In this document: piece after piece, positions 35,279-56,435 of the stretch
Layout: each line of letters starts with the position of its first letter
How positions within the stretch are numbered: position 1 is the stretch's first letter
IMG/VR virus record: IMGVR_UViG_3300018077_000007
Coordinates: 1-64,000 of that record
Strand: one strand, 5' to 3'
DNA from: a virus
Length of the DNA: 64,000 nucleotides
Position numbers and translations under genes: made by a program
The notes under the pieces: generated by a model
The model's database searches: none
What the model was told of the DNA's origin: nothing
Seen by the model: only the letters and a program-made list of their open reading frames with translations

Positions 35279-35287
35279 GCCGGCCGC

Positions 35288-36335: not shown

Positions 36336-36386
36336 GCTCGGTGTATCGGGTCCGCACGGACTCACACAGAAAGGAGGTGATGCCCA

Positions 36387-38223: not shown

Positions 38224-38227
38224 CGGG

Positions 38228-39820
38228 GTGGCCAACGAAGACATCGGCTTCACCGACTACACCGACTGGAGTTGGCTCCAAGCCCTGGGGTTTGAGGACT
38301 TCCGGTTCCCCGAGACGCAGTACGGGGTCTCGCCCGTTGACTTCCGTCCGGCCCTCGGCGATCAGGTGTTCGAAGATCCGTTCGGGCCGCCGGTTCAGCC
38401 CGCGTTCGAGATCACGCCAGAATTTCAGAGTCTCCTTCAGAACGTGCCTCCCGAAGATTTACGGGATTGGGGCGTGGATACCACGACGGGGCAAATTGTC
38501 GATACAAAGACCGGGAAGTCGCCGGAGAGCCTCAGCGCCCGAGATGCGGCCATCATTGCCGCCGTTCAGAAGCAACCGACCTGGCAGGATCGGCTCTTAC
38601 AGTTTGGCATTCCCACGGCGGCGGCGCTCGCGGGAACTGGGGTGGCCCGGCTCATCACGGGCGGTCCCACGACGGTCAAACTCCCCGAACTCACCGGGCC
38701 GGGGCCGGTCGCCACGGCGGGGCAGAACACGCTCCTGACGGCCCTGACCTCGCCGGCTCTCCGAAACGCCCTGACGCTCGCGCAAGGGGGTGATGGGACC
38801 TGGAGCCTTCCCGGAACGCCGGGGATGCCGAGTGCCACGGGCGGGCAAGATTTGGAACGCCTGATCCGATCGGCCCTCACGGGTCAGCGCACCATTGCCG
38901 ATCTGGCGACCGCCGCCGCAGGCCGAGAATTCGGGGCCGCCGAAGAAGAAGCCCCGCTCCAGCGGCTCTACCGGCTGGCGGCGCTGGCCCAACTGCCCGC
39001 GTTCATGGCCCGCCCCGGCCAAGCCGATGCCATGGCCCCGCTGCTCCAGGCGTATGCGGCGGCGAATCTGCCGCCCGCCGGGCCGATGACCGATCCCACG
39101 ACGGCGGCGTTGACGGCTGAACTGGAAGCGGCCTTTGCGGGCAAACTCGATCCTGAAACGGAACGCCGGATTGCCGAAGCGCGGACCTCGCTACGCAACA
39201 CCTTGGCGGCCCAACTCTTGATCAATCCTGGCGATGTCGAGTTGACGACGCCGGGGGCACAGCGCATGGCGGAATTCGAGCGCAATGCCGAGGAACTCCG
39301 GGGGGGCCAGCGGCGCCAGACGATTTCGACCCTCGCGCCCATCGAGCAGCAGCGGCGGCAATTCAACGTGACGACGCCACTGCTGACCCGGATGCAAAAT
39401 CTGGGGCTGCTGCTGCCGGAGGAACGGATTCGGACCCTGTCGGACGACGAGCGGCGCCGGGTCGGGTTGGCCGAACAACTCACGTTCTCAGGGCTCGGGC
39501 GGATCAATCCCGCCACCACCGCCGGCACGCTCTCGAACCTGCTGCCGATCTCCCCCCTGCTCGGGATTCAGCAGACCGATGCCGACCGGCAACTCCAGAA
39601 TGCGCTCCGGGTGCAGGCGGCGCTCTCGGGGTTCCAGGCCGAGACGCAGGGGAACCGCGATCTGGCGACGGCCATCAACCAAGCCTTCGGGATCGGGGCT
39701 TCGGCCCTCGCGCCCCGCGCCTCGTCAACCATGGACCTCTTGCCGCTGATGTTGGCGGGGGGCATGATGAGCCGCACTCCCGGCACTCCGCTCAGCGCAG
39801 AGTCCCTGATGGTGGGCTAA
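38228..39820 (+). CDS. Putative ejection / DNA-transfer protein
   Basis: Helical A/L/Q-rich sequence; located after the tail genes. Confidence 0.55.
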   Translation: MANEDIGFTDYTDWSWLQALGFEDFRFPETQYGVSPVDFRPALGDQVFEDPFGPPVQPAFEITPEFQSLLQNVPPEDLRDWGVDTTTGQIVDTKTGKSPESLSARDAAIIAAVQKQPTWQDRLLQFGIPTAAALAGTGVARLITGGPTTVKLPELTGPGPVATAGQNTLLTALTSPALRNALTLAQGGDGTWSLPGTPGMPSATGGQDLERLIRSALTGQRTIADLATAAAGREFGAAEEEAPLQRLYRLAALAQLPAFMARPGQADAMAPLLQAYAAANLPPAGPMTDPTTAALTAELEAAFAGKLDPETERRIAEARTSLRNTLAAQLLINPGDVELTTPGAQRMAEFERNAEELRGGQRRQTISTLAPIEQQRRQFNVTTPLLTRMQNLGLLLPEERIRTLSDDERRRVGLAEQLTFSGLGRINPATTAGTLSNLLPISPLLGIQQTDADRQLQNALRVQAALSGFQAETQGNRDLATAINQAFGIGASALAPRASSTMDLLPLMLAGGMMSRTPGTPLSAESLMVG

Positions 39821-39824
39821 TTCC

Positions 39825-41522
39825 GTGGCCATCACCTTTGCGGCCCCCGCACCCACCGGGGCAGGGCTCTCGGCCTTCCTGGACGCCTACCTCAAGGGCC
39901 GGGGGGTTAAGCGGGAGGAAGAGAGCGACGAGCTCCGCCGCACCCTCGCGGCCATGCAGCTCCTTCAGGCTGGCCAGGCGTATCAGGCGGGCGAGCGCAC
40001 GACTGCCGAACAAGCCCTCGTGCCAGAAGCGATTCAGCGGGCTCTCGCTGTGCCGGAGCGCACCACGGCGCTCCCGGCGACCGGCATCCCGGGCACCGAA
40101 GCCGTGCCCCAGGTCTCGGAATACCCCGGCTATGCCGCGCCCGCCGAGATGCCAGGGCGCACCGTTCCGCTTGGACGCACCCCCGCCGATGTGCTGTCCG
40201 CCTTGCAGCCTGAGCAGATGGTGGCGTTGCTGAAACACGCGCCCGGCGTGCTCCCCGCGATGGGGCTCCAGAGCGAGGAACAGATCCGCCAGCGGGAACG
40301 CCGGGAGCAAGGCCGCCAGAAGATGCGCACCCTCTATGCGCAAATTCAAGACCTGGGGAAGTCCCGCCGGTGGATTGACGAGCTGGACAAGGAAATCGAG
40401 GGGATGGGGGTTCTCCTGGAGATGGCCGACACTCCCGAGCAAATGGCGGGGGTGCAGGGCGAGCGCCGCAAGCTGTTGGTGACTCGGAAAACCCTCGAAG
40501 ATGACGAGATTGAGCGCACGCTTGGCCCGCAGGAGAAAACGCGCATCTGGGAGGCCGTGGAGACCGCGCGGGTCGCCAAACTCAAGGGCACAGATGTGGC
40601 CCCCGCCATGAGTGCGTTGCACCAAGCGATCGGCACCGCCACGACAAAATTCGGGCGGGCCGAGGGGGAGAAGATCACGGATCGCATGTCGAAGAAACTC
40701 CTCGATGATCTCGTGGAGGACCCGACCGAGCGCGAGTTTCATCGGGCCGTCTGGACCGACGTGCGGGGGCGGCTCACGGCGAATGAACCCTGGTCCCCGG
40801 CGCTCTGGGCCAAGTCGGCGCGCGCCGTGATCGCAGCGGACCCGCAGCGGTACGGGGCGATGGGGTTCACCCTCCTCCAACATAAAACGGTCCCTGACTG
40901 GTTCAAGGAGGCATTCTTTGCGGGGGCGGGCACCGTGCCGGGACTGACGGACAAGGGACTCCCGCCAGAGATCCATGTCGGGAAGATCCAAGAGGAAGAC
41001 GAGGCCCGTCGGCAAGGTCGGTTGCCGACGTTGCAGGGCACGATTCAGAAAGCGCAAGCCTGGGTGCAGGGAAAGGCCACCCGCGATCCGGTGGCCTTGG
41101 CGCAATTGCGCCAGATCACGCAGGGGCAAGTCGATCAGGCCCAGCGGGATGTGCGCGACGCCGAACGCCATTTGGTCGAGGCTCAGAAGGAAGGCTTCCG
41201 GATGAGGGACTTCCTGCCAGGACTGGAAGCGAAAGTGACGGCCGCGAATGAAGTCGTCAAAGCGCGGGTCGCTGACCTGAAAGCGGTCGAGCAAATGGTG
41301 GTGGCGTCGCTGCCGCCGGGCCTGCGGGAGGTGTATGAAAAAGGCAAACCCGCGCCTGCACCGCCCCCGCCAGACATGAACCAGGTTCGAGCCCGGCAGA
41401 AGGCCCTGACCGAGGAGGAACACGCGAAGGAAGGGGCCACGCCCGAGAAGATCAAGGCGGCGGTGAAAGCGCGACTGCAACAGGAGTTTCCGACCCTTCC
41501 CTCCATATATTTCCCCCGATAA
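39825..41522 (+). CDS. Putative ejection protein
   Basis: GLSAFLDAYLKG N-terminus, helical; lies just before the giant gene. Confidence 0.55.
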   Translation: MAITFAAPAPTGAGLSAFLDAYLKGRGVKREEESDELRRTLAAMQLLQAGQAYQAGERTTAEQALVPEAIQRALAVPERTTALPATGIPGTEAVPQVSEYPGYAAPAEMPGRTVPLGRTPADVLSALQPEQMVALLKHAPGVLPAMGLQSEEQIRQRERREQGRQKMRTLYAQIQDLGKSRRWIDELDKEIEGMGVLLEMADTPEQMAGVQGERRKLLVTRKTLEDDEIERTLGPQEKTRIWEAVETARVAKLKGTDVAPAMSALHQAIGTATTKFGRAEGEKITDRMSKKLLDDLVEDPTEREFHRAVWTDVRGRLTANEPWSPALWAKSARAVIAADPQRYGAMGFTLLQHKTVPDWFKEAFFAGAGTVPGLTDKGLPPEIHVGKIQEEDEARRQGRLPTLQGTIQKAQAWVQGKATRDPVALAQLRQITQGQVDQAQRDVRDAERHLVEAQKEGFRMRDFLPGLEAKVTAANEVVKARVADLKAVEQMVVASLPPGLREVYEKGKPAPAPPPPDMNQVRARQKALTEEEHAKEGATPEKIKAAVKARLQQEFPTLPSIYFPR

Positions 41523-41528
41523 TTCCCT

Positions 41529-44500
41529 ATGGCGAGTCCGTTTGAGACGGCCCTCGAAGAAGACCTTGCGGAACTCACCGGACACCGCCCCAAGGGGCGC
41601 CCGCCCGTCCCGCCCGTCCTTTCTCCTTTCGAGCGAAATCTCACGGAGGATCTGAAGGCGCTCACCGAAGAGAAACGCACCCGGCTCGCCGAGGAAGCCT
41701 TTGGCATTGACCTGGCGGGGCGCCCCCGGCCCACAATGGAGGAAGTGGCTGGCGTTTCCCCTGCTCAGATCCTTGCCCCCGCCCTTCCGACCTCTCCCGA
41801 AGCCGCCGCCGCCCTGAGCCTCCGCACCGCTCCAGAGCCGGTCATCCCCCCCGTGCCGTCTCACTTGGAGGTGCTCCGTACTCCGCCGGGGCAGCCCGGT
41901 CCGGGGATCGCGCCGGTGATCCCGGCGGGAGCGCCGTTGCCGGGGCGAGTGCAGCCCGTGAGTCGCCCGCCCGCCATGACCGCCGAGATGGCCTTCGCGC
42001 AGGCTCCCGAGGCGATGGTTGAGGCTCCTTCGACCACGCCTGACATCCTGGCGGCGCTTGCGGCACTCCCTCGGGTGGCGCGTCCGACTCTCGAAGAGAT
42101 GACCCCAGAGGCTAAGTTGCTTCGGAGCCTCATGGCTCTTCCGTCCGAGGTCTTTGCTCAACAGGGTCCTCCGGCCCCTCCGCCCAAGATCACGCCCTAC
42201 CAAGCCCCCTCGGTCTTTGAACCTCCTGAAACCGTGGCGGGTCGGGCAGGCCGAGCGATGGTCTTCGGACTCCGCACTGGAGCAGTCGGGCAATTTGCCC
42301 GGTGGCTCAATCAGCAGATCGGCGAGCAGCTTCCGGGGCCACCGTCCGGTCCCGTGCAGGCCATTGATCCTGACAACGCCTTTGAGCAATTGATTGCACT
42401 GGGCACCAGTCTCGGGACCGATTGGAAGCTCTTCAGCTTTGGCGGCAAGGTCGGCATGGAAGCCATGTCCCGCGTGCTCAACGGTATCGGAGCTGGGATG
42501 ACGAAGCGGGGCGTCGCGGCAGGGCTTACCGAGGCCGAGGCCCGTGCTGCGGCCCAGCAGGTGCTTCGGGAGAATCCGGTGGTCCAAATGCTCACCGGGG
42601 CTGCGGTGGGGGCCAGCGCCCTCGCGATTCCTGGAGCGGCTCGGGAAACAAGTCGAGAACTCGTGACCGGTGAACCCTTGCAACCCGGCAAGATCGCAGC
42701 GGCGGCAGGCAAGGAAGCGATCATCGGGGGGTTAACCTTTGGGGTCGCTGCCCCGATTGATTCCCGAATCCTCCGGGCTACCGCCCTGATCTTGGGGTTT
42801 GGAACATTGCCGCCGATTGTCCAGGAACAGCGGATGCCCACGGCCCACGACCTCATCAACGCGGGCGTGTCGATTGGACTCATTGAATTAGCCGCCGCCC
42901 TGATGGGAGTCAGGAGCGGGTGGCAGGCACGCCAAGCCAGAGGTGAACCACTTCCCGAACTGGGGCGCGATGTTGTTGGGAACGTGATTTATGACCGAGT
43001 TCTCGGCATTTTCAAGCGGAAGGGAATGTCGGAGAACGAGGCGCGGGCGAGTGCGGATCGCTTGATTCAGGAAACGGTTGGGGTTGCCGCCAAGCCGACA
43101 CGGGCGACGACCGGTGCCCAGCCAGCCACACCGGGAGAAGCTGGTTCCCTCGCCCGCCCCCGCGAGGGGTTGACCGAACCCGAAATCGAGTTGGACGTGC
43201 TGGAGCGCCGGGCCGCCGAACTGCACCGCCAGATCGCCGCCGAGGAAGCGGCACCCGCGCCGCCCCCCCCGCCAGCGGCTCCTCCCGCGCCCCTGCCGCC
43301 TCCAGCGCCCCGACCTCCTGCCCTCGTGCCCGTTCCACCGGCTCCCACTGAGATCGCCCCGCCTGTGCCCCCGGTGGCCCCAGGAGCCCCTCTTCCGGCC
43401 CCGATTGAGCGCCCTCCGGCCCCTGTGACATGGGGGGGGTGGCAAGAAACCCCCACAGGGCCACCGTTGGAGTTGTGGACCCTGACCGAGGCCATTCCGG
43501 GCCATCCCGATGGTTCGACGGTCGGCCGGGAGACCTTGGAAGCGGCAGGGTTCACGGTGCCCGAACCTCCAGAGATCCCGCCCCAAGTCCCGGCTCCGAC
43601 CCGTCCAGCCCCCCAGGTTCCCGTTCCACCGGCTGGAGTTGCGGGCGCTCCTCCGCCATCCGTTCCTGAAACTGCCCCGGGGGCAGAATTGCCACCTGAG
43701 ACTCCACGTGGAACATTACCCACCGAAGGATTCACGCGGGTTGGCGCTGCCGAATACGGGGACCTGCCGAAGGAAGGGCGCTCCATCTACAACCCGACCG
43801 GACTCCGTGGGCGCGTCGTCGGATCGGATGCGGAGAACTTCTACGTGAGTCGGCTCGCTGGATCCGTCGCCTGGGTGGATAAATACCCCCGACAACTGAT
43901 CGAAGACACGCAAGCCTACTTTACCGAAGGCGCTGCCGTCCAGACCCCCTATGGCCCCGCCACCCTCGTCACGCCACCGGCCCGCGATGACCGGGGCATG
44001 GTGATGGTGACGGTGCGCTGGCCGGCGGGCATTCCAGCAGAAGTGTCCGACCGCCTGGGCGCATCGGCGCTCTTGGATGCCCCGGTCTTCCAGGGGCGTC
44101 CCGAAATGCAGGCTGATTGGGTCGGCTGGCGAACCGTGCGCCCCGGCTATCCCTCGGTGGGGCAATGGAAGCTCCGGCAACCTATCAAGGGGCATGAGAG
44201 CGGGGAAGTCGTCACCGCCTTAGCTATTCGGGATGCAGGATTCCGGGCACCGATTCCTCCAGAAGCCCCGCCGGCTCCCCCCACCGCTCCCAAGGCCCCC
44301 GTTGCCCCGGTGCCGCCACCGCCGAAACCGCCCCGACCAGGAAAACGCCTTCTCAGGCCAGATCAACTCAGCGATTTTCGTCCCGGCATTGACCGGGTGG
44401 AACGGCGCGGAGATCGCACCTTTGTGGTGGACTCCCTCGGGGAACGGGCACCCGTTGAAGTGCAATCGGATGTCGTGATTCCAGAGATCGAAACTCGGCT

Positions 44501-47500
44501 CCGCGCCCAACGTACCCAACCTGCGTTGCGCAACCGAGCCATTCAAGCAATTCGACAAACCCCGTTCCTTTCACCAGAAGGAAAGGCCGAGCGTCTTCGG
44601 ATTCTTGAAGAGCCAGAGGAACTTCCAGCCCCAGAAGCGGCACCTCCGGTCACGCCGACAGTACAGCCGACCCCGCCTCCTTCGGGGGTGATCCCGGTCC
44701 CCCGCCCGACCGACTATCGGCTGGTTCAACGGCTCCCAACCGATCCCGTCACCATTCAGATGCGGGAACCGACCGGGCGCTGGACCACGGCCACCACCGT
44801 TGATGATGTCCCGGCCGCTGAAGAATGGGTGAGGGCCTGGGGAGGAACGATTATCCGGCGTACCCTGCCACCCCCGCCCCTTACCGCTGGCTCCCGCGTC
44901 CGGCTCAAGGATGGGCGGGACGGGACGGTCGAAAGCCTCAAGGGCGGCGTGGCCCGCGTGAAACTGCCCTCGGGGCAGAAGGTGAACGCCCCGCTGCGGT
45001 CGCTGACGCCGAAAGAACCCGAGATTGCCGTCCCTGCCGCCCCACCGCCCACCCCAACCCTGGAAGAAGGGCAGCGACAAGGAACCCTCGTCCCAATTGA
45101 GCCTGCCACCACCAAGGCGATTTCGGATCAGGTCAGCGAGTACCTGAAACGGCTAGAGCAGGTTGAAGGGACGCTAGAGCCCGAAGAGATCGCCGAGGGC
45201 CAGGTGTTACTGACTCGGGTGCAGGATCATCTGGATGAACTGCCCGCCGCCGCCCTGTCCCAACGAGCCGATATGCGGGCGGCGGAAGAAAAACTCCGGC
45301 TTCCAGCCGAACAGGGAACTCGGCCGGAATACGTTGGGCCGACTCGCCCGCCTCCTTCACCGCCCGAACCGCCGAAGCCCATTGATCTTGACCGCCTCGG
45401 GCCATCCATGCGGCGAGCTGAGATTCGCGGCGCGAAGGTCGGGCAGGCTGTCACGTTTCGAGGAGAGACCTGGGCGCTGGCGAAATCGGGATACTGGACG
45501 CATGGTGGTGAGACCCTGGCGACCCAGGCCCTCGTCTCACATTTCGAGTCGATGAGTCGCCAACCGGCTCCGATCCCGCCAGTTCCGCCAACCGAGGTTC
45601 TTCCCTCTGGGCGTGTGCAACTGGCCGATGGGCGTCAAGGAACCGTCGTCGGACGGTCCGAAGGTCTTGCCCCCTGGAAAGGAATCATCACGCGGGTTCG
45701 GCTCGACGACGGAACGGAGGTGAACGTTCGGACCGACCGCTTGACTTCTGTGCCAGCCGCGCCCACACTGGCTGGTGAGGAGGGTGGCCGTGCCGTTATC
45801 CCACCACGAGAACCCGAACGTCCCGCCGAGTCTCGCGGCCCAGATCGAAGACCACTGGCGGAAGTATCGCCCGAACCTAGTCCGCGCCCTAGAGGCGGAC
45901 AGCCAGTTGAAGGACTCGGTGGAGGAGGCCGCGCTCCTGACCGTGGAGGCGCTGGACGACCTGCTGGAGAAACGGGTGCCATACAACCAAGCGTGGGAGG
46001 CCGTCCGCCACGAGTGGGCGTTCCTGCCGGCGGAAGACGAGGTGCCCGACCTGCCCCTTCCGTTCCTACCAATCTCGATTACCGCTTCACCCCAGACGAC
46101 GCCGCCCGCATCGTAAGCGGCGGTCCTAAAGAGCGCGTTCGCCGCAACCTCGATAGCATCCGGCTCCTCAAAGAGATTGAGGCGGCTGGGCGCCCCGCCA
46201 CCCCCGAAGAACAGCAAACCCTGGCTGCTTACGTTGGGTGGGGACCCTTCAAACAAATCTTTGAGCGCTACTGGGATCCGAAATGGGCCGATCTCTACCA
46301 AGAGATCAAGGACACCCTCACCGAGGACGAATACGAAGCCGCCCGCGCCTCCAGCCTGAACGCCTTCTATACCACGCCGGGAGTGGTAGAAGCGATGTGG
46401 GGCGCAGTCAAGCAGTTCGGACTACCGGGTGGTCCCGCAACCCGCATCCTTGAACCCGCGATGGGGATCGGGTACTTTTTCGGCTTTATGCCCGACACCT
46501 TCACGGGGGTCCGGCGCGTCGGCGTGGAATTGGATCCGATCACGGGCCGGATGGCCACGCTCCTCTTCCCCAGTACCCGCGTCCATGTCCAGGGCTTCGA
46601 GACCGTGCCGTTTCCGAAGAACTTCTTTGATCTGGCGGTCAGCAACGTGCCGTTCGGGGAGTTCGGCGTCCATGACCCAGCTTATCGCCGAGAACCGTTC
46701 CTCACGGAGTCGATCCATAACTATTTCTTCGCCAAGGCTCTCGATGTGGTCCGGCCTAGTGGCGTCGTCGCGTTCATCACGTCACGCTATACCTTGGATG
46801 CACGAAATTCCCGATTTCGCCAATGGCTCGCGGATCGGGCGACCTTGTTAGGAGCGGTCCGGCTCCCCGAGACGGCCTTTCAACGCGCCGCTGGCACCGA
46901 AGTCGTTACCGACATTCTCTTCTTCCAGAAGTACCCCTCGGGCACGACCCCGACCTGGGTAGACAGCACCCCGATGCAGGTCAGTGGCGTCACGAAACAT
47001 GTGAACGCCTATTTCCAGGAGCATCCCGAGATGGTCCTGGGCCGGCATGTGGTCGAACGCGGGATGTACGAACCCGAGGCATTAACCGTCAAGCCAACTG
47101 GCGATCTCCTTCAACAATTAGCGGCGGCCCTCGCCGAGTTGCCGGAGGATGTGATCCGATCCGCCGGAATTCCCGTGCGCGACCCCCTCCCTGCCGCCGT
47201 GCCAGAACCGCCCGGTGCGGTCAAAGACGGCGGGTTCTTTCTTGACCAGGGGGCGATCTTCCGTAAGCACGGGACCGAAGCGGTCTCTGCCGACATTCCC
47301 GTCGCCCAGATCCCGAAGGTCACGGCACTCCTCCACATTCGGGACGCGGCCCGCGAGGTGCTCCGGGCGCAACTCGAAGAGCTTCCTGATGCCGAATGGG
47401 AGACGGCCCGCACCCACCTCAATCGACTCTACGACATCTTCCTCAAGCGACACGGACCGCTTTCGGCTCGAACGGTCCACCGAGAATTCACGGGCGACCC

Positions 47501-50500
47501 CGATTTCCCGTTCCTGCTGGCGCTCGAAAAGAGTTATGACCCTGACACGAACCGGGCGGAGAAGGCCGACCTCTTCATAAAGCGCACCATCCAGCCGTAC
47601 CGACCCCCCGAGCGAGCTGAGACCCCCCAAGCGGCCCTCCTGATCGCTCTGAACGAAACCGGGCGAGTGGATCTGGCCCGGATGGCGGCGCTGGTCGGGC
47701 AGTCTCCAGAAGGCGTCCAGACAGCCCTGGCCGGGTTGATTTATAAGAACCCTGAAGGCGACTGGGAAACCGCCGAGGAGTATCTCTCGGGCAACGTGCG
47801 GGAGAAGCTCCGGGCCGCCGAAGTCGCCGCGTCCCTAGAGTCTCTGTATCAGCCGAATGTTGAGGCACTTCTCCGCATCCAGCCGACGGATTTAGTCCCA
47901 GGTGAGATCGAGGTGCGCCTGGGATCGCCGTGGCTCCCGACCGACACGGCGGAAGCCTTTATTGGGCATCTCCTGGGCGCACAGCCGAGTGCCTTCCGCG
48001 TGGGTCATCACGCCGCGACGGCCACGTGGACCATTGAGGCGCGTGGATACCAAGGCGACCGTGTTCTCCAGAGTGCTGAGAATCTTCGGGTCTGGGGATC
48101 GGAGAACTACCGGGCCGTGGAGTTAATTCGGGATTCCTTGAATGGGGCATTCCCCACGGTTTGGACAAAAGATGCGGATGGAAAGAATGTGGTGGACCAA
48201 GACGCCACCCTTGCGGCCCGCGACCAGCAAGAGAAAGTGAAGGCCGAGTTTCGGAAGTGGGTGTGGACCGACGAGGACCGGGCCACCGCATTGGCCCAAC
48301 TCTACAACGAGCAGTTCAATGCCCTCCGGCTCCGGGAGCACGACGGGCGCCATTTAGAGTTGCCCGGCATGGCCAAGGGGGTACTCCGGGATGGTGATCT
48401 CGCCGCCCATCAAAAGAACGCCGTCTGGCGCATCCTCCAGGGCGGCAATGCGCTCATTGCCCACCACGTCGGATCAGGGAAAACCTATGTGGCCGCCGCC
48501 GCAATGATGGAGTTGCGTCGGCTCGGATTGGCCCGGAAGCCTATGCTGGTGGTGCCGCGAAGTCGGCTGGAAGGCACGGCAGCCGAGTTTCTTCAACTCT
48601 ATCCCGCCGCCCACCTGCTGGCCATCCAGCCGGAAGACTTGACGCCGCAGAAGCGTCCCGAACTGATGAGCCGGATTGCCACCGGCGACTGGGATGCCGT
48701 CACGGTGAGCCGAGAGAGCTTCGAGCGCCTGCCGGTGCGGAACGCGACCCTCGCCACTTTTATTCGGGAACAACTGCAAGAGTTGGAGGACGCGATCCGG
48801 GCCGAGAAGGTCGCCGAGGGACGCAGCCGAAGCCCGCTCATCCGCAAACTCGAAGTCGCCAAAAAGAAGCTGGAACAGAAGCTAAAAGACGCTCTCAAGC
48901 CCGAAGCGAAGGATGTTGCAGTAGCGTTTGAGGAATTAGGGGTCGATGCCCTTTTCGTGGATGAGGCCCAAGCCTATAAGAATCTGCCGGTCCGCACAGC
49001 GGCCCGCAACATCGCGGGGATCAACACGGCGGAATCCAACCGGGCCTTCGATCTGTTTATGAAGAGTCAATGGCTCCTGCGCCGCAACAACGGGCGGGGA
49101 CTGATCTTTTTGACGGGGACCCCGATTACCAACACCATTGCGGAGATGTATACGCTCCAGCGGTTTCTTGATCTTCCGCGTCTCCGGCAGTTGGGGCTGG
49201 CCGAGTTCGACGCTTGGCGGGGGCAGTTTGGCGAGATCGTTCAGAGCGTAGAACTGAACGTTCAGGCGACGGGATACCGGGTCAAGAGCCGGTTTGCCAA
49301 GTTTGTGAATCTGCCGGAACTCTTAACGCTCTATCGCACCGTGGCGGATGTGCAGACTGACGCGATGCTGAAGCTCCCGAAACCGGGGCTGGCGGGGGGC
49401 CGGCGCCGGGAGATCGTGACGACTCCGCATCCACGGATGCGCGCCTTCCTGGACGAGTTGAACCATCGGGTGGAAGCCATCCAGAAGCGTGTCGTTGAAC
49501 CGACCGTAGACAATATGCTCAAGGTAAGCACCGATGGACGGAAAGCCGCCATTGACATGCGGTTGTTCGATCCGACAGCCGGAGACGTGGCTGGGGGGAA
49601 AACCAGCCGAGCCGCCGAGGCCATCTACGAACAGTGGCACGTCAATCGGGCGATGAAGGGAACCCAACTCGTATTTGTGGACTTTTCAGCCCCGGCGACG
49701 GGAGCGTTCTCCGTGCCGACGGACCTCCGCAACAAGTTGGTTAAGTTAGGCATTCCGAAGGCCGAGATCGCCTTTATTCAGGACGCGAAGAACGTCAAGG
49801 CTCAGGAACAACTCTTCCAGAATGTTCGCCGGGGGCGCATTCGGGTGTTGATCGGGTCCACGGAGAAGATGGGGATTGGGGTGAACGTCCAAAACAAGGT
49901 GGTGGCCCTCCACCATCTGGATGCGCCCTGGCGTCCTGCCGATCTGGAACAACGTGAAGGCCGCGCTTTGCGGCCCGGCAACGAAAACGCCGAAGTCGAG
50001 GTTCTGCTCTATCTCACTCCCGGTTCCTTCGATGCCTATATGTGGCAAACCCTGGAGCGCAAGGCTCGGTTCGTCGACCAGATCATGCGGGGCGAAGTCG
50101 GAGTGCGGTCGGCGGAGGACATTGAGGGCCGAGCCTTCACCTACGCGGAGTATAAGGCCCTCGCGTCGGGGAACCCCATCGTGGCCGAAAAGGTCCAGGT
50201 GGACGCGGACATTCTGCGGTTGGGACGCCTCCGCGCCCACCATGACACACAGCAATGGCAGATCCGGCGCGATCTCGCGGGGCTCCCCGTACGCTTGGCC
50301 GAGGCCGACAAGCGGGTGACGGCAATCCAATCCGACATCGGAACCCGCAATCAAGACCGCCCCGCTGAATTCAGCATGACCATCGCGTTGATGCTCCGCA
50401 CGGAACACCGTGGCACCTTCACCGATCGAGTCGAAGCGGGTGAGCAACTCTGGAAAATGTTGAATGCGGCTCGTGGAAGCAGCGCGCCAACGAAACTTGG

Positions 50501-53500
50501 CGAATTTGCTGGCTTTGCCCTCATGGTAAAGGGGTTTGATACTTCAGACATTACGCCCGCCGTTTGGCTGGAGGGCCAAGCCGAGTATCCGGTTTCGACG
50601 CTTTCGGAAACCGGATTAGGTGTGATTCGCAGCATCGAAGGGCAACTTCTGCACCTCGAAAGTAAACTCACCGAAGCCGAGGCCGACCGTGCTGCCCTCC
50701 AGCAGAAGCGCACGACGCTCGAAGGTGAACTCGATAAACCGTTCCCAGAGGCCGCCAAACTGGCGGAACTGGAGCAACGCCAAGAAGAACTGGCGCAGCA
50801 GCTTGATCTCACGGCCAACGACCATCAGGCGGCAGGGCAAGAGACCGAGCCCGACGAGGGGGCCGAAGAACCCCCCGAGATCCGCGAACCCGAGTCCCGA
50901 ATCAACCCCGACGCTGTTCGCGGGTTCCTGTCTGAAATGCGCGTGGAGCGGGAAGGGGAAACCCGGGCGACGGCCGCGATGGACCCCCGGCTTCTCAAGG
51001 TGTTGGGCGGGAACCTCTATACCGGCGATCTCGGGAAAATCGCGGTGAAAGAGATGCTCCAGAACGCCGTGGACAGCGTGCGTGGTCTGGCCGACCAAGC
51101 TCAGGGGCGCGTGACGGTCGACGTGACGTTGACAGGCGATACCAAGACCATCGCGGTTGAGGATAACGGGGTCGGCATGACCCCCGAGGTGGCGACCCAG
51201 GAGTTGGTGGACATCGGCGGAAGCCAGAAGGTCGCCGGTGCCTCGGGTGGGTTCGGGATCGCCAAGGTCGCGATCTTCGCCAACGCTGCCACGATTGACG
51301 TGGAGACCACCGCGAAAGATCCGGCGGGCCAGGGGGCCACGCGCACGAGGCTCTCCGGCTCATCCGACGAATGGCTTGACCCGCAGCAGGGACTTCGCGT
51401 GGAGACCGAGCGGATGGCTCCCGACACGCCGACCGGAACTCGAATCAGCATTACCCTGGCCGATACCGTGCAGACGAATCCCTATGAGACCCGCAGCTTT
51501 CTGAACAGCTTCCTCCAGTGGCATCGGCTCCCGGTCTCGTTCCAGTTCCGTCTCAATGGGGAGATTCAAGCCCTGCCGCAGGGACGGGTTGACCCGCTGA
51601 AGACCCTCACGATTCCAGGCGGGACGATTGAGCTGTTTGCCACGTCCGACCTGGTGTCTCAAAGCGTAGTCCAGGTCGAAATCCTCAACCACGGACTCCC
51701 GCAGTTCCGCCAGGCGTTCTTTCTCGGGGTGGAGACACAGATCCCGGGGCGGATCGTGGCCGATATTCAGTCCCGAGAAGGGCCAGAAGCCCCCGAGTAT
51801 CCGTTTTCGCCGGATCGGGAACGACTCCGGCCGACGACCGAGAGGGCACTGACCGACTATCTGAAGGATGAACTCGCCAAAGACGCGATCACCAACGAGC
51901 GCCGCGAGTACCAACGCATCCTGTCGGAGGCTCCGGTCATTCCCGGCACGGGCGGTCACCGGATCGTGGACACGACGGAGGGGGTCTCCCGTGATCTCCT
52001 CGAAGCGATCGCCACATCCGACGCCACCCGTCGCGTCTCAGGACACCTGGCCGGGATCGTCGCGCGCCTGCGAGCTGAATTGGCCCGCGTGGAGGCGCAA
52101 CCGTACTGGGCACCAGAGCAAATTCAGTATTTTGGCTTGAGCGTCGCCGGGGCGCACTTGGGGATGAATCTCAATGGCCGCTTGATTGAAGGGAGAGATG
52201 ACGCCCCCAACCTCGTGGCTTTCAATCCCTATAGCATCCTCGATGAAGTGCAGACCTTGGCGCAGGTGGCCGGGTTGGCGGCCGACGAAATTCCCCAGCA
52301 GTTTGCCGCGAGAGCCGTATTCACGGTCATCCACGAACTGGCGCATCAAGCGAGCGGAGCGCACGAACAAACGTATGCGGGAGCCTTGACACGAGCGGGC
52401 GGCAACCTGATAATGCAGGCGGCGCAGGCCACCGCCGCATTGACGGCGCTCGTGAAGGAGCAGAACAATGCCATCCTCCGCACCCTCGCTGCCGACCTTG
52501 CCCGGCTCCGCCCTCAGTGGGGCGGAGAAGACCGTCTTAGCAAAGTTGTCACCGGCCTTGCAGCAACCACCGGAGCCGAAGGCCCTCCGGCTCCTCTTGG
52601 CAGACGCGAAGGCGCAGGGGCTCGACCCAGAGAAGCTCTACCAGCTGGCCGTCCAGGTGCGGTCCCCAGCATGGGTCCCGGCCCCGCCGTACCCGGAGGT
52701 CCGCCCGGCGTAGTCCAGGAACCCATCCTGCCCCCAGCACCCTACGGCGGGGCCGAACCGGCGGGACCGGAATACCGCGCCGCCATGGTGCAGCAGATTC
52801 TCGACGACCTCGTGACGGCGGGTCGGAGAGAATTGAAGACCGCCCCAACCTTTCCCGCGTGGCAAGCCCGGATGTTGGCTCAATGGGGCGATTGGACACG
52901 CCCGTATCTTCAGGCGACCTATGATCGGCTGACAGCGCCGGAAACTGCCCCGAGGGCAGAACCGACGACCGCCGGGACCCCGCTGCGCCCAGAGCCCGAA
53001 CCCGCTCCCCCCGAACCCGAACCGATGGATGCTGGAGTCCCGCCGGTGGAACCGCCGCCGCCCCAGGCCGAGACGATGGCCGCCCCGAATTTCCAGCCGC
53101 CGCGAACCCCGAGAGAACGGCAAGAATTGATCGCCAAGGCCGCGATCCTGAAGCGGCTCGAAGACGTGCTTCGGGTGCCGATCCAGACCGGGCGCGTGAG
53201 CCGCCCAGGAGCTCGAGGCGTCTTCCTCGTCGAACCCGAAGTGATCCGGCTCCGGTGGGCCGGAAACCTCCATACGGGGCTCCATGAGATCGGCCATTTC
53301 CTCCACAAGCGCGGGATGCTGCCCGAGGGGTGGGCGGCGCGGCTCGAAGCATTAGGGCAAGGGCATGAAGGCGATCCCGAACGCGAAGGCACCGCCGAGT
53401 TCGTGCGTCTGTTCGTCATGGACCCTGCGGGCGCGGAGGCCGCCGCGCCCGGGTTGCCAGACGCCTTCACGGCCCGCCTGAATCGGGACTGGCCCCGCGC

Positions 53501-56435
53501 CCTCGAAGCCCTCCTCTGGGCCAAGGAACGGCTGGCGGAATTTCGTCAGGCCCCTCTCCTGGCCCGGATTGAAGCGTCAACCGTGAAAGGCACTCGCCCG
53601 TTCCTGGCGCATCTCCGCAGCCGATCCTTCGCAGAGTGGGCCGTCCGGTTTTATACCGCTGTGGTGGACGATCTGGAACCGATCCGCCTGATCGACAGGA
53701 TTGTGGAAGAGGCCCAGGGGGAGCCGCTGCCCACGGATCGGCAAGCCTATGTACTGGCCCGGATGGCGCACGGGTGGACCGGGGTGGCGGCGGTTGCCGT
53801 GACCGATGGCGTGCCCGATTGGAACACGCTGGTCCCCCGCACGGATGTCCCGAGCTTCGTCAAGGCCGTGGAACCGATCTGGAAGGACTGGACGCGGTTT
53901 GGGGCCTATGTCCAGCTTCGGCGGGTGGTGGACGACCTCGTGGGTGCGGAGGCCCCGCCAGCGGACCTCACGGGGCCGGGACGGGCCAAGTGGGACGCGG
54001 CCCAACGGCGGCTCCAGGAAGCCGGGCGGCGCCGGCTCGCCGCGTGGGAGACGACGCCCGCCGAGGCCCAACGGCTCGTGGAGCAGATCGAGACCCCCGC
54101 GTTTCGACAGGCGGCCGAGGACCTCTATCGCTGGAATGGCGCGATCCTGGATTTCGTCGCAGCCTCGGGACGCTACGCCCCGGAGTTTTTGGATCTGCTC
54201 CGCCGGATGCACGCCCACTACGTGCCGTTTTATAGCTGGGTGGAGGAACCCGATGCGATGCCCGGTCCACCCGGCGGCGGCAATCGGCTGGCGAACTTGC
54301 CCAGTCCGATTCGGATGCTGCGGGGGAACGAGTTGCCGCTCCTTGATCCGCTCCTCGCCCTCGTGCGGAACGGCTTCGCCCTCATCAACGTGGCGATTCG
54401 GAATGACGTGGGGGCGACCCTCGTGGACAACATCGAGTCGGTCGAAGGGTTGGGGCATCTCCTCCATCGGGTGCCCCCTCAGATGGTGCCGACGCGCGTC
54501 TCTCTCGAAGAAATGCGCGGGCCAATGGAAGAGGCCGGGCTGGATCTGTCGGATGCCGATCTGTCCACCATGGGCACGGTGTTCCGGCCCGCTCGCGGGA
54601 AGGAGCAGGCCCCGTATCTGGTGATCTATCGCAATGGGAAGGCTGAACATTACGCCGTCGATCCCCTGCTCTACCAATCGCTCCTGTTCCTGACGCCTCC
54701 TGAAGCGAATCTTGCCGTGAAAACGGCGGCGTTCTTCGCCAAGATGCTCCGAGGCGGGGTAACGCTGAGTCCATCGTTTGCCGTGGCGAACGTTGTCCGG
54801 GATCAGGTGACCGTCGCGGCCACGGCGAAGGCCGTCCCGTTCCGTGAATGGGCTGAGGGGGTGGCGGCGATTATCGGCGGCACCGAAGTCGCGAAGCAGT
54901 ACGCCGCGAGTGGAGCCTCGATCTTCGGGATTCGCGGGGACGACGTGCGAAGCCTTGAACGCCTGATCCGCCGGGCAGCGCAGGGGCGATTTTCCACGCT
55001 CCGAGATGTGGGGGATCGACGGCAGGGGATGCGGGCTCTCTGGGAGGTGATGGCCGACGCGATAGACGCCATCAGCAGCGGGCAGGAAGCCATCACGGAA
55101 CGGGCCACCCGCGTTGGCGTCTTCGGGCGTCAATTAGAACGGCCTAGACCCGAAGATGTCGCCTCCGAACGACCACAACGGGCCATCGCCTTGCGAGCTG
55201 GGTTTGAGAGCCGTGAGGCGAGCGTGGATTGGCGACGGCATGGTGGCAGTCCCGCCCTCCGGCAATTTGCTATGACGACGGTCTTTTTCAATCCCTGGAT
55301 TCAGGGCGAGGACAAATTCGCCCGGACCATCGGGGGCAAGCAGAGCCGCGCCCGTGCCGCCTGGATGGGGGCCATCCTGTTTGGAGCCGGGCTGGTGGCG
55401 TATCTTTGGAACAAAGAGCATCCGTCCTGTTGGGATCAGCGGGCCACCTACGAGAAAGACACGAACTTTATCGTGTGCCTGCCGGGGGGGGAGGAGGCCG
55501 TGAAGGTGCCGGGCGCGTGGGAGTGGCACGTTGGATTTATCGCGATCCCGCGCCGGGTGTTTGAGTATTTTGACCGCACCGATCCCGACATCCTCCATAA
55601 CTTTCTTCGGACCTCTGGGCGCGGGCTCTTTCCCGGCAGTTGGCTTCCGAACATTTTCGTGCCCTGGCTGGAAAACGCGATGAACTGGTCCATTTTCCCG
55701 GGGCGCCCTTTGGTGCCCCGGGGTGTAGAAGGTCGGGAACCCGCCGAGCGTGACACGCCTGGGACCGCCGAAGTCGCCCGGCGGATCGGGAAGGCGCTGA
55801 ACTATCCCCCTCCGTTCGTCCAGAACGTCATCCGGGGCTATTTCGGCACGGTCGGGATGGAACTGACGCGGCTCCTCGATCCGCTCCTGGCGGATCCCAC
55901 CGCCCCGCCCCCGGCTCGGCGGCTGAGTGATTATCCCGTCATCCGCCGGTTCTTCGCGTCTGGCCCGTCCCTCCAGTCCGAATGGATCGAACGATTCTAC
56001 CGATACCGCAAGCAAGCGACCGAGGCGAAGGGGAGTTATGACCAGAAGCAGAAGATCGCCGGGTGGGCGGCATTGGTCGCCACCGATGAGGGTCGGAAGG
56101 AACTCCGACGCCGTGAACTCCAGGGCGATCCCCGGCTCCACGAGGTGGAGCGCTTTGCAAAAGCGCGGGCCTGGGAATTGACGATCGCCAGCAGTTTTGA
56201 GCACACCGCCAGCCTGTTTGCCCAGAGCCGGGAAGACTTCGAAGCGATCCGCGCCGATCCGAAGCTGACGCCCGAGCAGAAACAGGTGGAGTCGGACAAG
56301 ATCAAACGAGCCATGGTGCAGGAAGCGAAGGAACGGGTGCAGGGAGCCGACCTCTTGCGGCGCACCCTTAGCATCCAGGCGGCGGAGAAGGCGGCGGCGG
56401 CGGAGAAGGCGACCGCCGCAGGAGGAGGCCGATGA
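41529..56435 (+). CDS. Giant polyvalent (DarB-like) virion protein: N6-adenine MTase, SF2 helicase, GHKL ATPase, zincins, LPD38-like C-terminus
   Basis: MTase ILEPAMGIG and NVPFG; helicase HHVGSGKT, DEAQAYKN, LTGTPITN, WRPADLEQREGR; GHKL KEMLQNAVDS, VEDNGVGM, GGFGIAK; HELAH and HEIGH; C-terminal FFNPWIQG...ENAMNWS.F.GRPLVP. Confidence 0.88.
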   Translation: MASPFETALEEDLAELTGHRPKGRPPVPPVLSPFERNLTEDLKALTEEKRTRLAEEAFGIDLAGRPRPTMEEVAGVSPAQILAPALPTSPEAAAALSLRTAPEPVIPPVPSHLEVLRTPPGQPGPGIAPVIPAGAPLPGRVQPVSRPPAMTAEMAFAQAPEAMVEAPSTTPDILAALAALPRVARPTLEEMTPEAKLLRSLMALPSEVFAQQGPPAPPPKITPYQAPSVFEPPETVAGRAGRAMVFGLRTGAVGQFARWLNQQIGEQLPGPPSGPVQAIDPDNAFEQLIALGTSLGTDWKLFSFGGKVGMEAMSRVLNGIGAGMTKRGVAAGLTEAEARAAAQQVLRENPVVQMLTGAAVGASALAIPGAARETSRELVTGEPLQPGKIAAAAGKEAIIGGLTFGVAAPIDSRILRATALILGFGTLPPIVQEQRMPTAHDLINAGVSIGLIELAAALMGVRSGWQARQARGEPLPELGRDVVGNVIYDRVLGIFKRKGMSENEARASADRLIQETVGVAAKPTRATTGAQPATPGEAGSLARPREGLTEPEIELDVLERRAAELHRQIAAEEAAPAPPPPPAAPPAPLPPPAPRPPALVPVPPAPTEIAPPVPPVAPGAPLPAPIERPPAPVTWGGWQETPTGPPLELWTLTEAIPGHPDGSTVGRETLEAAGFTVPEPPEIPPQVPAPTRPAPQVPVPPAGVAGAPPPSVPETAPGAELPPETPRGTLPTEGFTRVGAAEYGDLPKEGRSIYNPTGLRGRVVGSDAENFYVSRLAGSVAWVDKYPRQLIEDTQAYFTEGAAVQTPYGPATLVTPPARDDRGMVMVTVRWPAGIPAEVSDRLGASALLDAPVFQGRPEMQADWVGWRTVRPGYPSVGQWKLRQPIKGHESGEVVTALAIRDAGFRAPIPPEAPPAPPTAPKAPVAPVPPPPKPPRPGKRLLRPDQLSDFRPGIDRVERRGDRTFVVDSLGERAPVEVQSDVVIPEIETRLRAQRTQPALRNRAIQAIRQTPFLSPEGKAERLRILEEPEELPAPEAAPPVTPTVQPTPPPSGVIPVPRPTDYRLVQRLPTDPVTIQMREPTGRWTTATTVDDVPAAEEWVRAWGGTIIRRTLPPPPLTAGSRVRLKDGRDGTVESLKGGVARVKLPSGQKVNAPLRSLTPKEPEIAVPAAPPPTPTLEEGQRQGTLVPIEPATTKAISDQVSEYLKRLEQVEGTLEPEEIAEGQVLLTRVQDHLDELPAAALSQRADMRAAEEKLRLPAEQGTRPEYVGPTRPPPSPPEPPKPIDLDRLGPSMRRAEIRGAKVGQAVTFRGETWALAKSGYWTHGGETLATQALVSHFESMSRQPAPIPPVPPTEVLPSGRVQLADGRQGTVVGRSEGLAPWKGIITRVRLDDGTEVNVRTDRLTSVPAAPTLAGEEGGRAVIPPREPERPAESRGPDRRPLAEVSPEPSPRPRGGQPVEGLGGGGRAPDRGGAGRPAGETGAIQPSVGGRPPRVGVPAGGRRGARPAPSVPTNLDYRFTPDDAARIVSGGPKERVRRNLDSIRLLKEIEAAGRPATPEEQQTLAAYVGWGPFKQIFERYWDPKWADLYQEIKDTLTEDEYEAARASSLNAFYTTPGVVEAMWGAVKQFGLPGGPATRILEPAMGIGYFFGFMPDTFTGVRRVGVELDPITGRMATLLFPSTRVHVQGFETVPFPKNFFDLAVSNVPFGEFGVHDPAYRREPFLTESIHNYFFAKALDVVRPSGVVAFITSRYTLDARNSRFRQWLADRATLLGAVRLPETAFQRAAGTEVVTDILFFQKYPSGTTPTWVDSTPMQVSGVTKHVNAYFQEHPEMVLGRHVVERGMYEPEALTVKPTGDLLQQLAAALAELPEDVIRSAGIPVRDPLPAAVPEPPGAVKDGGFFLDQGAIFRKHGTEAVSADIPVAQIPKVTALLHIRDAAREVLRAQLEELPDAEWETARTHLNRLYDIFLKRHGPLSARTVHREFTGDPDFPFLLALEKSYDPDTNRAEKADLFIKRTIQPYRPPERAETPQAALLIALNETGRVDLARMAALVGQSPEGVQTALAGLIYKNPEGDWETAEEYLSGNVREKLRAAEVAASLESLYQPNVEALLRIQPTDLVPGEIEVRLGSPWLPTDTAEAFIGHLLGAQPSAFRVGHHAATATWTIEARGYQGDRVLQSAENLRVWGSENYRAVELIRDSLNGAFPTVWTKDADGKNVVDQDATLAARDQQEKVKAEFRKWVWTDEDRATALAQLYNEQFNALRLREHDGRHLELPGMAKGVLRDGDLAAHQKNAVWRILQGGNALIAHHVGSGKTYVAAAAMMELRRLGLARKPMLVVPRSRLEGTAAEFLQLYPAAHLLAIQPEDLTPQKRPELMSRIATGDWDAVTVSRESFERLPVRNATLATFIREQLQELEDAIRAEKVAEGRSRSPLIRKLEVAKKKLEQKLKDALKPEAKDVAVAFEELGVDALFVDEAQAYKNLPVRTAARNIAGINTAESNRAFDLFMKSQWLLRRNNGRGLIFLTGTPITNTIAEMYTLQRFLDLPRLRQLGLAEFDAWRGQFGEIVQSVELNVQATGYRVKSRFAKFVNLPELLTLYRTVADVQTDAMLKLPKPGLAGGRRREIVTTPHPRMRAFLDELNHRVEAIQKRVVEPTVDNMLKVSTDGRKAAIDMRLFDPTAGDVAGGKTSRAAEAIYEQWHVNRAMKGTQLVFVDFSAPATGAFSVPTDLRNKLVKLGIPKAEIAFIQDAKNVKAQEQLFQNVRRGRIRVLIGSTEKMGIGVNVQNKVVALHHLDAPWRPADLEQREGRALRPGNENAEVEVLLYLTPGSFDAYMWQTLERKARFVDQIMRGEVGVRSAEDIEGRAFTYAEYKALASGNPIVAEKVQVDADILRLGRLRAHHDTQQWQIRRDLAGLPVRLAEADKRVTAIQSDIGTRNQDRPAEFSMTIALMLRTEHRGTFTDRVEAGEQLWKMLNAARGSSAPTKLGEFAGFALMVKGFDTSDITPAVWLEGQAEYPVSTLSETGLGVIRSIEGQLLHLESKLTEAEADRAALQQKRTTLEGELDKPFPEAAKLAELEQRQEELAQQLDLTANDHQAAGQETEPDEGAEEPPEIREPESRINPDAVRGFLSEMRVEREGETRATAAMDPRLLKVLGGNLYTGDLGKIAVKEMLQNAVDSVRGLADQAQGRVTVDVTLTGDTKTIAVEDNGVGMTPEVATQELVDIGGSQKVAGASGGFGIAKVAIFANAATIDVETTAKDPAGQGATRTRLSGSSDEWLDPQQGLRVETERMAPDTPTGTRISITLADTVQTNPYETRSFLNSFLQWHRLPVSFQFRLNGEIQALPQGRVDPLKTLTIPGGTIELFATSDLVSQSVVQVEILNHGLPQFRQAFFLGVETQIPGRIVADIQSREGPEAPEYPFSPDRERLRPTTERALTDYLKDELAKDAITNERREYQRILSEAPVIPGTGGHRIVDTTEGVSRDLLEAIATSDATRRVSGHLAGIVARLRAELARVEAQPYWAPEQIQYFGLSVAGAHLGMNLNGRLIEGRDDAPNLVAFNPYSILDEVQTLAQVAGLAADEIPQQFAARAVFTVIHELAHQASGAHEQTYAGALTRAGGNLIMQAAQATAALTALVKEQNNAILRTLAADLARLRPQWGGEDRLSKVVTGLAATTGAEGPPAPLGRREGAGARPREALPAGRPGAVPSMGPGPAVPGGPPGVVQEPILPPAPYGGAEPAGPEYRAAMVQQILDDLVTAGRRELKTAPTFPAWQARMLAQWGDWTRPYLQATYDRLTAPETAPRAEPTTAGTPLRPEPEPAPPEPEPMDAGVPPVEPPPPQAETMAAPNFQPPRTPRERQELIAKAAILKRLEDVLRVPIQTGRVSRPGARGVFLVEPEVIRLRWAGNLHTGLHEIGHFLHKRGMLPEGWAARLEALGQGHEGDPEREGTAEFVRLFVMDPAGAEAAAPGLPDAFTARLNRDWPRALEALLWAKERLAEFRQAPLLARIEASTVKGTRPFLAHLRSRSFAEWAVRFYTAVVDDLEPIRLIDRIVEEAQGEPLPTDRQAYVLARMAHGWTGVAAVAVTDGVPDWNTLVPRTDVPSFVKAVEPIWKDWTRFGAYVQLRRVVDDLVGAEAPPADLTGPGRAKWDAAQRRLQEAGRRRLAAWETTPAEAQRLVEQIETPAFRQAAEDLYRWNGAILDFVAASGRYAPEFLDLLRRMHAHYVPFYSWVEEPDAMPGPPGGGNRLANLPSPIRMLRGNELPLLDPLLALVRNGFALINVAIRNDVGATLVDNIESVEGLGHLLHRVPPQMVPTRVSLEEMRGPMEEAGLDLSDADLSTMGTVFRPARGKEQAPYLVIYRNGKAEHYAVDPLLYQSLLFLTPPEANLAVKTAAFFAKMLRGGVTLSPSFAVANVVRDQVTVAATAKAVPFREWAEGVAAIIGGTEVAKQYAASGASIFGIRGDDVRSLERLIRRAAQGRFSTLRDVGDRRQGMRALWEVMADAIDAISSGQEAITERATRVGVFGRQLERPRPEDVASERPQRAIALRAGFESREASVDWRRHGGSPALRQFAMTTVFFNPWIQGEDKFARTIGGKQSRARAAWMGAILFGAGLVAYLWNKEHPSCWDQRATYEKDTNFIVCLPGGEEAVKVPGAWEWHVGFIAIPRRVFEYFDRTDPDILHNFLRTSGRGLFPGSWLPNIFVPWLENAMNWSIFPGRPLVPRGVEGREPAERDTPGTAEVARRIGKALNYPPPFVQNVIRGYFGTVGMELTRLLDPLLADPTAPPPARRLSDYPVIRRFFASGPSLQSEWIERFYRYRKQATEAKGSYDQKQKIAGWAALVATDEGRKELRRRELQGDPRLHEVERFAKARAWELTIASSFEHTASLFAQSREDFEAIRADPKLTPEQKQVESDKIKRAMVQEAKERVQGADLLRRTLSIQAAEKAAAAEKATAAGGGR
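45790..46116 (+). CDS. Overprinted small gene nested (+1 frame) in the giant gene, TnpV-like
   Basis: GAGGAGG RBS at 45777-45783, GTG start, strong GC3 bias in this frame; HWRKYRPNLVRALE..QL...AWEAVRHEW.FLP.E. Confidence 0.7.
   Translation: MPLSHHENPNVPPSLAAQIEDHWRKYRPNLVRALEADSQLKDSVEEAALLTVEALDDLLEKRVPYNQAWEAVRHEWAFLPAEDEVPDLPLPFLPISITASPQTTPPAS
52468..52713 (+). CDS. Second overprinted small gene nested (+1 frame) in the giant gene
   Basis: AAGGAG RBS at 52455-52460; amphipathic helices, while the host frame becomes G/R/P/A-rich over this stretch. Confidence 0.5.
   Translation: MPSSAPSLPTLPGSALSGAEKTVLAKLSPALQQPPEPKALRLLLADAKAQGLDPEKLYQLAVQVRSPAWVPAPPYPEVRPA

Follow-up and report, generated by a model that had tools for sequence, protein, structure and literature searches.

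A small gene probably embedded in the +1 frame of giant DarB-like phage genes, just before the methylase-helicase module

We analyzed a 64,000-nucleotide stretch of viral DNA (positions 1 to 64,000 of the IMG/VR record IMGVR_UViG_3300018077_000007; hereafter the window), which belongs to a virus record of 84.5 kb with a genome G+C content of about 65% and a portal gene at 15485-17572. Its plus strand carries a giant open reading frame (ORF), the product of which is organized, in order, as a variable N-terminal part, a linker, an N6-adenine methylase, an SF2/SNF2 helicase, a GHKL ATPase and an LPD38 end. The giant gene product can be assigned on sequence grounds to the DarB-like polyvalent proteins, because Pfam matches LPD38 (E = 2.4e-24) together with ResIII, Helicase_C and HATPase_c above the cut-off, and an Eco57I-type methylase weakly (0.032). 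The methylase module shares 37-56% identity with DarB-like phage genes, and 38-49% identity in an alignment with 16 loci. Just before this module, a small ORF lies on the same strand in the +1 frame relative to the giant gene, whose own frame is called frame 0 below (Table 1). Here we present evidence that this small ORF is probably a genuine gene embedded in the giant DarB-like gene, with the same DNA read twice.

It is evident that the small ORF has the start signals that the initial annotation ascribed to it, that is, a GAGGAGG element six nucleotides ahead of a GTG, and it ends at a TAA. The +1 frame is shut by a TGA shortly upstream. The predicted duplex of the GTG leader with the anti-Shine-Dalgarno (anti-SD) sequence has an energy of -12.7 kcal/mol, which is matched by none of the 314 other ATG or GTG triplets in the locus. 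The product from this start is predicted to have 108 residues, a mass of 12.2 kDa and an isoelectric point (pI) of 4.6. The methylase module starts within the nested gene, sharing 46 nucleotides with its non-conserved tail. Over the nested ORF, the frame-0 reading includes ...ESRGPDRRPLAE...GGGGRAPDRGGAGRPAGE..., and the 94-residue linker consists of G, R, P, A and E to 76.6%, compared with 46.9% in the whole giant protein, with 11.7% hydrophobic residues. The earlier description of the host reading as a degenerate G/R/P stretch is therefore accurate.

Codon composition also distinguishes the nested ORF. The G+C contents at its first, second and third codon positions are 0.716, 0.422 and 0.835 (109 codons), in line with the initial remark that nearly all of its codons end in G or C, and the corresponding values are 0.713, 0.504 and 0.713 for the giant gene overall and 0.843, 0.713 and 0.426 for frame 0 over the same bases. 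Among 98 sliding windows, the second position of frame 0 is the GC-poorest in 92, and three of the six exceptions fall on the nested ORF. ORF length was dropped as evidence, because 11 ORFs of at least 100 codons lie on the same strand in alternative frames of the giant gene; the nested ORF is the only one of the 11 in which the codon-position pattern is flipped. No promoter-like site was found in 45000-46600, nor any plus-strand terminator. RNA folding at the nested start in eight loci gave z-scores from -1.1 to +1.9, and a conserved hairpin was not found.

Table 1. Positions of the giant gene, the nested gene and their signals in the window
Feature	Position	Strand	Basis
Giant polyvalent (DarB-like) gene	41529..56435	+	Single 4968-codon ORF and Pfam matches
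+1-frame ORF, 113 codons from the first GTG	45775..46116	+	ORF call within 41529-56435
Nested gene (probable), 108 codons and TAA	45790..46116	+	ORF, codon G+C, homology, conserved core
Alternative GTG starts of the nested gene	45775 and 45784	+	
TGA shutting the +1 frame upstream of the nested gene	45742..45744	+	Read from the sequence
Shine-Dalgarno-like GAGGAGG, 6-nucleotide spacer to GTG 45790	45777..45783	+	Sequence; anti-SD pairing
TAA stop of the nested gene	46114..46116	+	
Frame-0 G/R/P/A/E-rich linker, giant-protein residues 1421-1514	45789..46070	+	Translation and composition
Methylase module start in frame 0 (NLDYRFTPDD...)	46071..48278	+	Homology to other loci

Homologues of the nested protein, on which the initial annotation had made its proposal depend, are numerous. 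A phmmer search of 1.84 billion cluster representatives returned 312 representatives at E≤1e-3 and 53 at E≤1e-10, the best at 4.7e-21 with 52% identity. The matched proteins are nearly always of 70-150 residues; among the 150 of the 312 matches that were listed, all but one are 72-283 residues long, and the matched part lies near the N-terminus. In the alignment, the core HW..[HY]RP...L...G.L...A...T...QAWE.VREEWAFLPSEEDVP is conserved, and the tails after it are variable and of low complexity. This core is mildly acidic across the family (median pI 5.05, net charge -5). No longer fused form was found at E≤1e-5 among 8000 candidates, which is weak evidence. No NCBIfam model was found for the protein, and a profile search of solved structures gave only short, chance-like matches to designed helical proteins. 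A plasmid search for the family yielded one record, a Brucella phage-plasmid, and a first viral scan with the window protein alone gave 116 pattern matches, none of which was confirmed.

In translated searches (tblastn) of 50,697 phage records, the small protein matched within giant genes annotated as DarB-like, PLxRFG, transglycosylase or DNA methylase. The matched set comprises 21 records from about 12 phages, with hosts among Klebsiella, Erwinia, Pseudomonas, Vibrio, Agrobacterium, Sinorhizobium, Ochrobactrum and Microcystis, and a small coding sequence is annotated at the nested position in none of the 21 GenBank or RefSeq records. The phase of the two frames was taken in nine cultured phages, a count that leaves aside SJM3, SopranoGao and Pavtok, and eight of the nine have the +1 nesting. 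In seven of them (LASTA, Stean, PEp14, VvAW1, Atu_ph08, POI1126 and Mwe-JY07) the small ORF is +1 to an annotated giant coding sequence, and in Pseudomonas phage Itty13 it is +1 to a giant ORF. This Itty13 ORF (NC_070969.1, 984-12221) is about 11 kb long on the plus strand, has 3746 codons, is open at the end of the locus and is unannotated; its place in the annotation is taken by three coding sequences of the opposite strand (gp01-gp03), probably a mis-annotation resulting from high G+C content.

Sinorhizobium phage PBC5 is the exception: its domain shares the reading frame of the upstream part and forms the end of gp22. Compared with its nearest relative, Atu_ph08, PBC5 has a 1-nucleotide gap at about position 5940 of the locus, roughly 60 nucleotides before the nested ATG. 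As a result of this gap, the small protein continues the reading frame of the upstream 2,000 residues, and the giant gene is divided into gp22 and gp21. Because of the gap, the in-frame form of PBC5 appears to be either a derived state or a sequencing error. The methylase frame of PBC5 is open from 5700 on, and 1.6 kb is unannotated. The same split would explain why the profile phrog_938, labelled 'endolysin' and presumably built from PBC5-type split proteins, ends with the small domain, which occupies profile positions 2084-2173 of 2185.

We then compared 87 loci with a family match, drawn from phage, metagenomic and viral sequences and metagenome-assembled genomes (MAGs). The methylase N-terminus lies within 1.2 kb downstream in 34 of them, including the window, and these 34 form 20 clusters at 60% identity. 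All 34 have the methylase in frame -1 relative to the small ORF (the small ORF thus being +1), and in 33 the methylase frame is open across the small ORF. The small gene always lies at the N-terminal edge of the methylase module, as first proposed from the window. The sole un-nested case is found in an Anaerolineales MAG (L014), where a separate small gene (4941-5291) is followed by a methylase-helicase gene (5273-10198). The N-terminus of the latter product is rich in cysteine (CxxC...CxxC), and a separate N6_N4 methylase gene lies upstream.

Among the remaining 53 loci, 24 have less than 1.3 kb of downstream sequence, and 29 have a -1 frame that is open over the match. Only one of these -1 ORFs, in L063 (4826-8308), reaches 400 codons: it has 1160 residues and encodes only a helicase (ResIII and Helicase_C), the small ORF lies nested within its 5′ end, and the methylase query found no match in it. 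Some of the 53 are clearly free-standing; in two Rokubacteria-type contigs, for example (L010, 4962-5231, and L040, 3544-3819), the stop of the small gene overlaps the start of a gene for an ABC transporter substrate-binding protein, a neighbourhood with no obvious tie to mobile elements. The N-terminal parts of the giant proteins are mostly unrelated. The first 1420 residues of the giant protein of the window match only L033 (35% identity over 339 residues), apart from a 44-residue piece matched in L006 and L023. Because the N-terminal parts are mostly unrelated, and because the small gene of L014 still adjoins the methylase-helicase gene, the small gene seems to be tied to the methylase-helicase and not to the upstream part. 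The initial description of the small gene as genetically inseparable from its neighbour is overstated, since the gene is separate in L014 and the family is also free-standing elsewhere.

Both readings of the shared stretch appear to be constrained. We held the nested protein fixed, redrew synonymous codons from local usage 5000 times and counted how often the host frame remained free of stops. An open host frame would be expected by chance at a rate of 0.001 in the window, 0.0038 in LASTA, 0.001 in L051 and 0.002 in L022, and was obtained in 0 of 5000 trials in VvAW1. Over 19 lineages, each represented by its first member, the frame is open in all 19, as against 2.42 expected (product of the probabilities 10^-26.8; P = 6e-11, Fisher). 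These results indicate that frame 0 of the host gene is kept open by selection.

Between relatives, the second codon position of the nested gene is the least changed and the third is the most changed. Amino acid identity is higher for the nested protein than for the frame-0 peptide in the pairs Stean and PEp14 (0.86 vs 0.79), LASTA and Stean (0.66 vs 0.47), Atu_ph08 and PBC5 (0.72 vs 0.51), L016 and L018 (0.62 vs 0.43), and the window and L022 (0.50 vs 0.45). The nested protein is about as conserved as the methylase flank. Moreover, its third positions are less variable than those of the flank (0.41 vs 0.49, 0.35 vs 0.51 and 0.40 vs 0.63), as a second coding constraint predicts. Thus, the small protein is the more conserved of the two readings and is under purifying selection. 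Stops sit a few codons upstream of the nested starts, and the anti-SD pairing of these starts falls in the top 5% of ATG and GTG triplets of the locus in 18 of 27 loci and in the top 10% in 22 of 27.

Several points weigh against dual coding and should be set beside these results. The nested starts used for the anti-SD ranking were our own choice; where a locus offered several candidates, the start 12-17 codons before the HW motif or the one with the best pairing was taken, which favours the outcome. Two of the 27 loci (L018 and L068) lack an SD-like signal. In the most GC-rich loci (L006, L008 and L021) the chance of an open host frame is 0.2-0.6, which is not individually significant. Furthermore, the lineages share ancestry, and the locus counts are not independent events; the open frame 0 would therefore reflect maintenance and not 19 independent inventions. 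Even so qualified, the homology, the ribosome-binding site and the conservation of both frames place the nested ORF above chance as judged from sequence. The proposal that this is a dual-coding region, with a real small +1 gene and a derived G/R/P linker, agrees with the homology, the shuffle tests, the codon-position pattern and the phase at 34 loci. One stretch of DNA very probably encodes two proteins here, and we infer from the conserved frames and the start signals that both are made.

An alternative is that the small ORF encodes the N-terminal domain of a second isoform, produced when ribosomes that start at the internal GTG slip into the methylase frame near the 3′ end by a programmed -1 frameshift. 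The geometry that this needs is present, with the methylase frame always -1 to the small ORF and the two frames overlapping in the window, and in one database protein, P0127, the domain is in frame with the methylase N-terminus. As in known programmed -1 frameshift genes, a downstream -1 frame overlaps the upstream one at all 34 loci, but their slippery heptamer is missing: a canonical X_XXY_YYZ heptamer is absent from the nested ORF of the window and occurs in the 3′ part of the ORF in only 3 of 32 loci. Among nested loci, the nested stop ranges from 62 nucleotides before to 103 nucleotides after the start of methylase homology, which leaves no fixed site for a shift. P0127, the sole in-frame fusion found in the databases, is a singleton cluster from one contig, in which the methylase breaks off after about 150 residues, and it may carry insertion or deletion errors. 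In-frame forms were accordingly dropped as proof of a fused domain, P0127 being a singleton with a truncated methylase and PBC5 being explained by its gap. We consider a frameshift improbable.

Still less probable is that the giant ORF is not read through the overlap at all, in which case two or three separate genes would be present and frame 0 would be open only because the G+C content is high. Long spurious ORFs are indeed common at about 65% G+C, as the alternative-frame ORFs inside the giant gene illustrate; the genes of L014 are truly separate, and chance openness reaches 0.4-0.6 in the most GC-rich loci. However, frame 0 has no stop at which ribosomes coming from upstream could terminate before the overlap, and an open frame is rarely obtained by chance in the window or in the Vibrio phage VvAW1, whose G+C content is 50%. 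The count over 19 lineages also speaks against separate genes, as does the annotated giant coding sequence, which is unbroken in seven cultured phages.

The view that the layout is an artefact of paired sequencing or assembly frameshifts, or a decaying untranslated remnant, could appeal to the in-frame domain of PBC5 and to the end of phrog_938, and is largely refuted by the gap that explains PBC5, by the same phase in all 34 loci from different projects, by the pattern of purifying selection, which is inconsistent with a relic, and by contigs from four sequencing runs over 45300-46500, which show no differing letter and no gap. Two of these four runs may be the source sample; the run X3 is from another sample, and its contigs (45562-45912 and 45967-46147) cover both ends of the nested ORF.

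With an embedded gene as the preferred reading, we asked what kind of protein it encodes. The initial annotation compared the product with TnpV, and a distant likeness is found in the relatives, not in the window protein itself. The window protein has no Pfam match at E≤1, and a search of the whole virus record with the TnpV model PF14198 gave none at E≤1. In a consistent register over profile positions of about 20-78, 14 of 39 relatives match PF14198, all of them below the Pfam gathering cut-off of 27 bits (best, 21.6 bits), and 4 of 42 relatives from a separate search carry a precomputed PF14198 match. These sub-threshold matches suggest that the nested family is a distant branch of the TnpV kind that falls outside the family as Pfam defines it. 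TnpV and the nested protein are alike in being small (about 100 residues), helical and encoded on mobile elements, TnpV on Tn4451/Tn4453-type mobilisable transposons and the nested protein by the 108-codon gene on a phage record with a portal gene. The contexts differ: Tn4451-type elements carry the large serine recombinase TnpX and a Mob protein, whereas the nested gene lies in a phage structural or late block, inside a methylase-helicase gene, where a serine recombinase was not noted, no search aimed at one having been made in the window. According to PMC3158075, the only function ever suggested for TnpV is a postulated role in excision, by likeness to lambda Xis.

A possible course of events can be outlined for the embedded gene. 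Ribosomes in frame 0 would read through the overlap and make a flexible G/R/P/A/E linker of about 94 residues that joins the variable N-terminal part to the methylase-helicase core. Initiation by other ribosomes at the internal GAGGAGG-N6-GTG would yield a helical, mildly acidic protein of 108 residues, which belongs to a widespread family distantly related to TnpV. The arrangement may have originated in a fusion of an upstream gene with the methylase-helicase gene, in which the small gene between them came to be read through out of frame. The linker is most likely the evolutionarily younger reading and the small gene the older one, as is suggested by the free-standing relatives of the small protein, by its globular composition and by the low complexity of the host reading.

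As for function, the initial annotation had suggested an inhibitor, chaperone or loader of the neighbouring module. The small protein would be made from the same mRNA, at the place where the methylase N-terminus emerges, and it may plausibly, if tentatively, be a non-covalent partner of the methylase-helicase module, either a helper in assembly or packaging or a gate on its activity. Some points weigh against such a partner. The suggestion is drawn from gene position only; the free-standing members beside unrelated genes in L010 and L040 indicate that the protein need not act on the methylase-helicase; and the mildly acidic core, together with the variable charge of the linker, offers no electrostatic clue to function. 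An acidic DNA mimic, or a pairing of an acidic protein with a basic linker, was dropped in view of this mild acidity and of linker charges from -14 to +6. A bolder and more doubtful proposal is that the small gene and the methylase-helicase form an ancient mobile two-protein cassette, fused to other genes by the overprinted linker, and that the small protein binds the nascent enzyme as a required subunit, a packaging helper or a safety catch of an injected anti-restriction enzyme.

Embedded genes are a known kind in phages, and Rz1 lies in the +1 frame of Rz. As with Rz1 inside Rz of lambda and the 'embedded class' of Bcep22-like phages, the window carries, entirely within a longer gene of the same strand and in its +1 frame, a small gene equipped with a start signal, and both frames are intact (33 of 34 loci, and the shuffle tests). 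The proteins are unrelated: Rz and Rz1 are lysis proteins, whereas the nested gene belongs to an anti-restriction module, and the host frame encodes a disordered linker within a protein of 4968 residues. The nesting described here also spans phages of many bacterial phyla. In other known cases, comS lies out of frame inside the very large srfAB gene of Bacillus subtilis, and viral overprinting occurs in the overlapping genes of phiX174. The comS gene is confined to one lineage, whereas the pair described here is conserved across distant phages and metagenomic lineages. Both products are needed in Rz/Rz1. The embedded spanin class is described in PMC9144972.

The host gene belongs with P1 DarB, a virion methylase-helicase. 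According to PMC6630229, P1 DarB needs separately encoded small partners (DarA and others) for incorporation into the capsid, and PBC5-like phages have no DarA homologue. In related podoviruses, the virion carries giant DarB-like proteins (PMC9144972, Table 6). By analogy only, a small partner made from the same gene could fill the DarA gap; no likeness of its sequence to DarA was found, and no search aimed at it was made. In their accessible text, neither PMC6630229 nor PMC9144972 speaks of a gene nested in a DarB-like gene, and that of the polyvalent-protein paper PMC5512222 contains no occurrence of TnpV, overlapping or frameshift. No description of the nested pair was found in the literature outside supplements and subscription journals. 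The nested pair is, on present evidence, real, widely conserved and unannotated.

Some features of the surrounding window are worth recording. The giant protein has a second G/P/A/R-rich linker (52479-52780) with odd codon-position G+C contents (0.86, 0.70 and 0.57), over which no same-strand alternative-frame ORF of at least 100 codons was found. The G+C content peaks at 0.714 in 12001-14000, compared with 0.58-0.67 in the rest of the window. Eight of the large ORFs in the interval from the portal to the giant gene (22470-41522) have no PHROG family at E≤1e-5, and neither does a 166-codon ORF (56432-56932) after the giant gene. These ORFs suggest that the phage of the window is remote from described phages.

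In double-stranded DNA phages, dual coding on one strand in different frames is regarded as uncommon and as limited to short stretches. In the present case, many distant lineages appear to maintain a whole gene of about 100 codons within the genome's largest gene, and the linker would be a clear natural case of a protein segment that arose by overprinting an older gene. Gene callers, as well as scans of the ratio of nonsynonymous to synonymous substitution, would misread the overlap region, and knock-outs or truncations of DarB-like genes may unknowingly take out another gene as well. An obvious candidate for the helper that these injected anti-restriction enzymes lack is the small protein. 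If the proposal of a mobile two-protein cassette were true, every annotated 'DarB-like' giant gene of this type would hide a second, essential gene.

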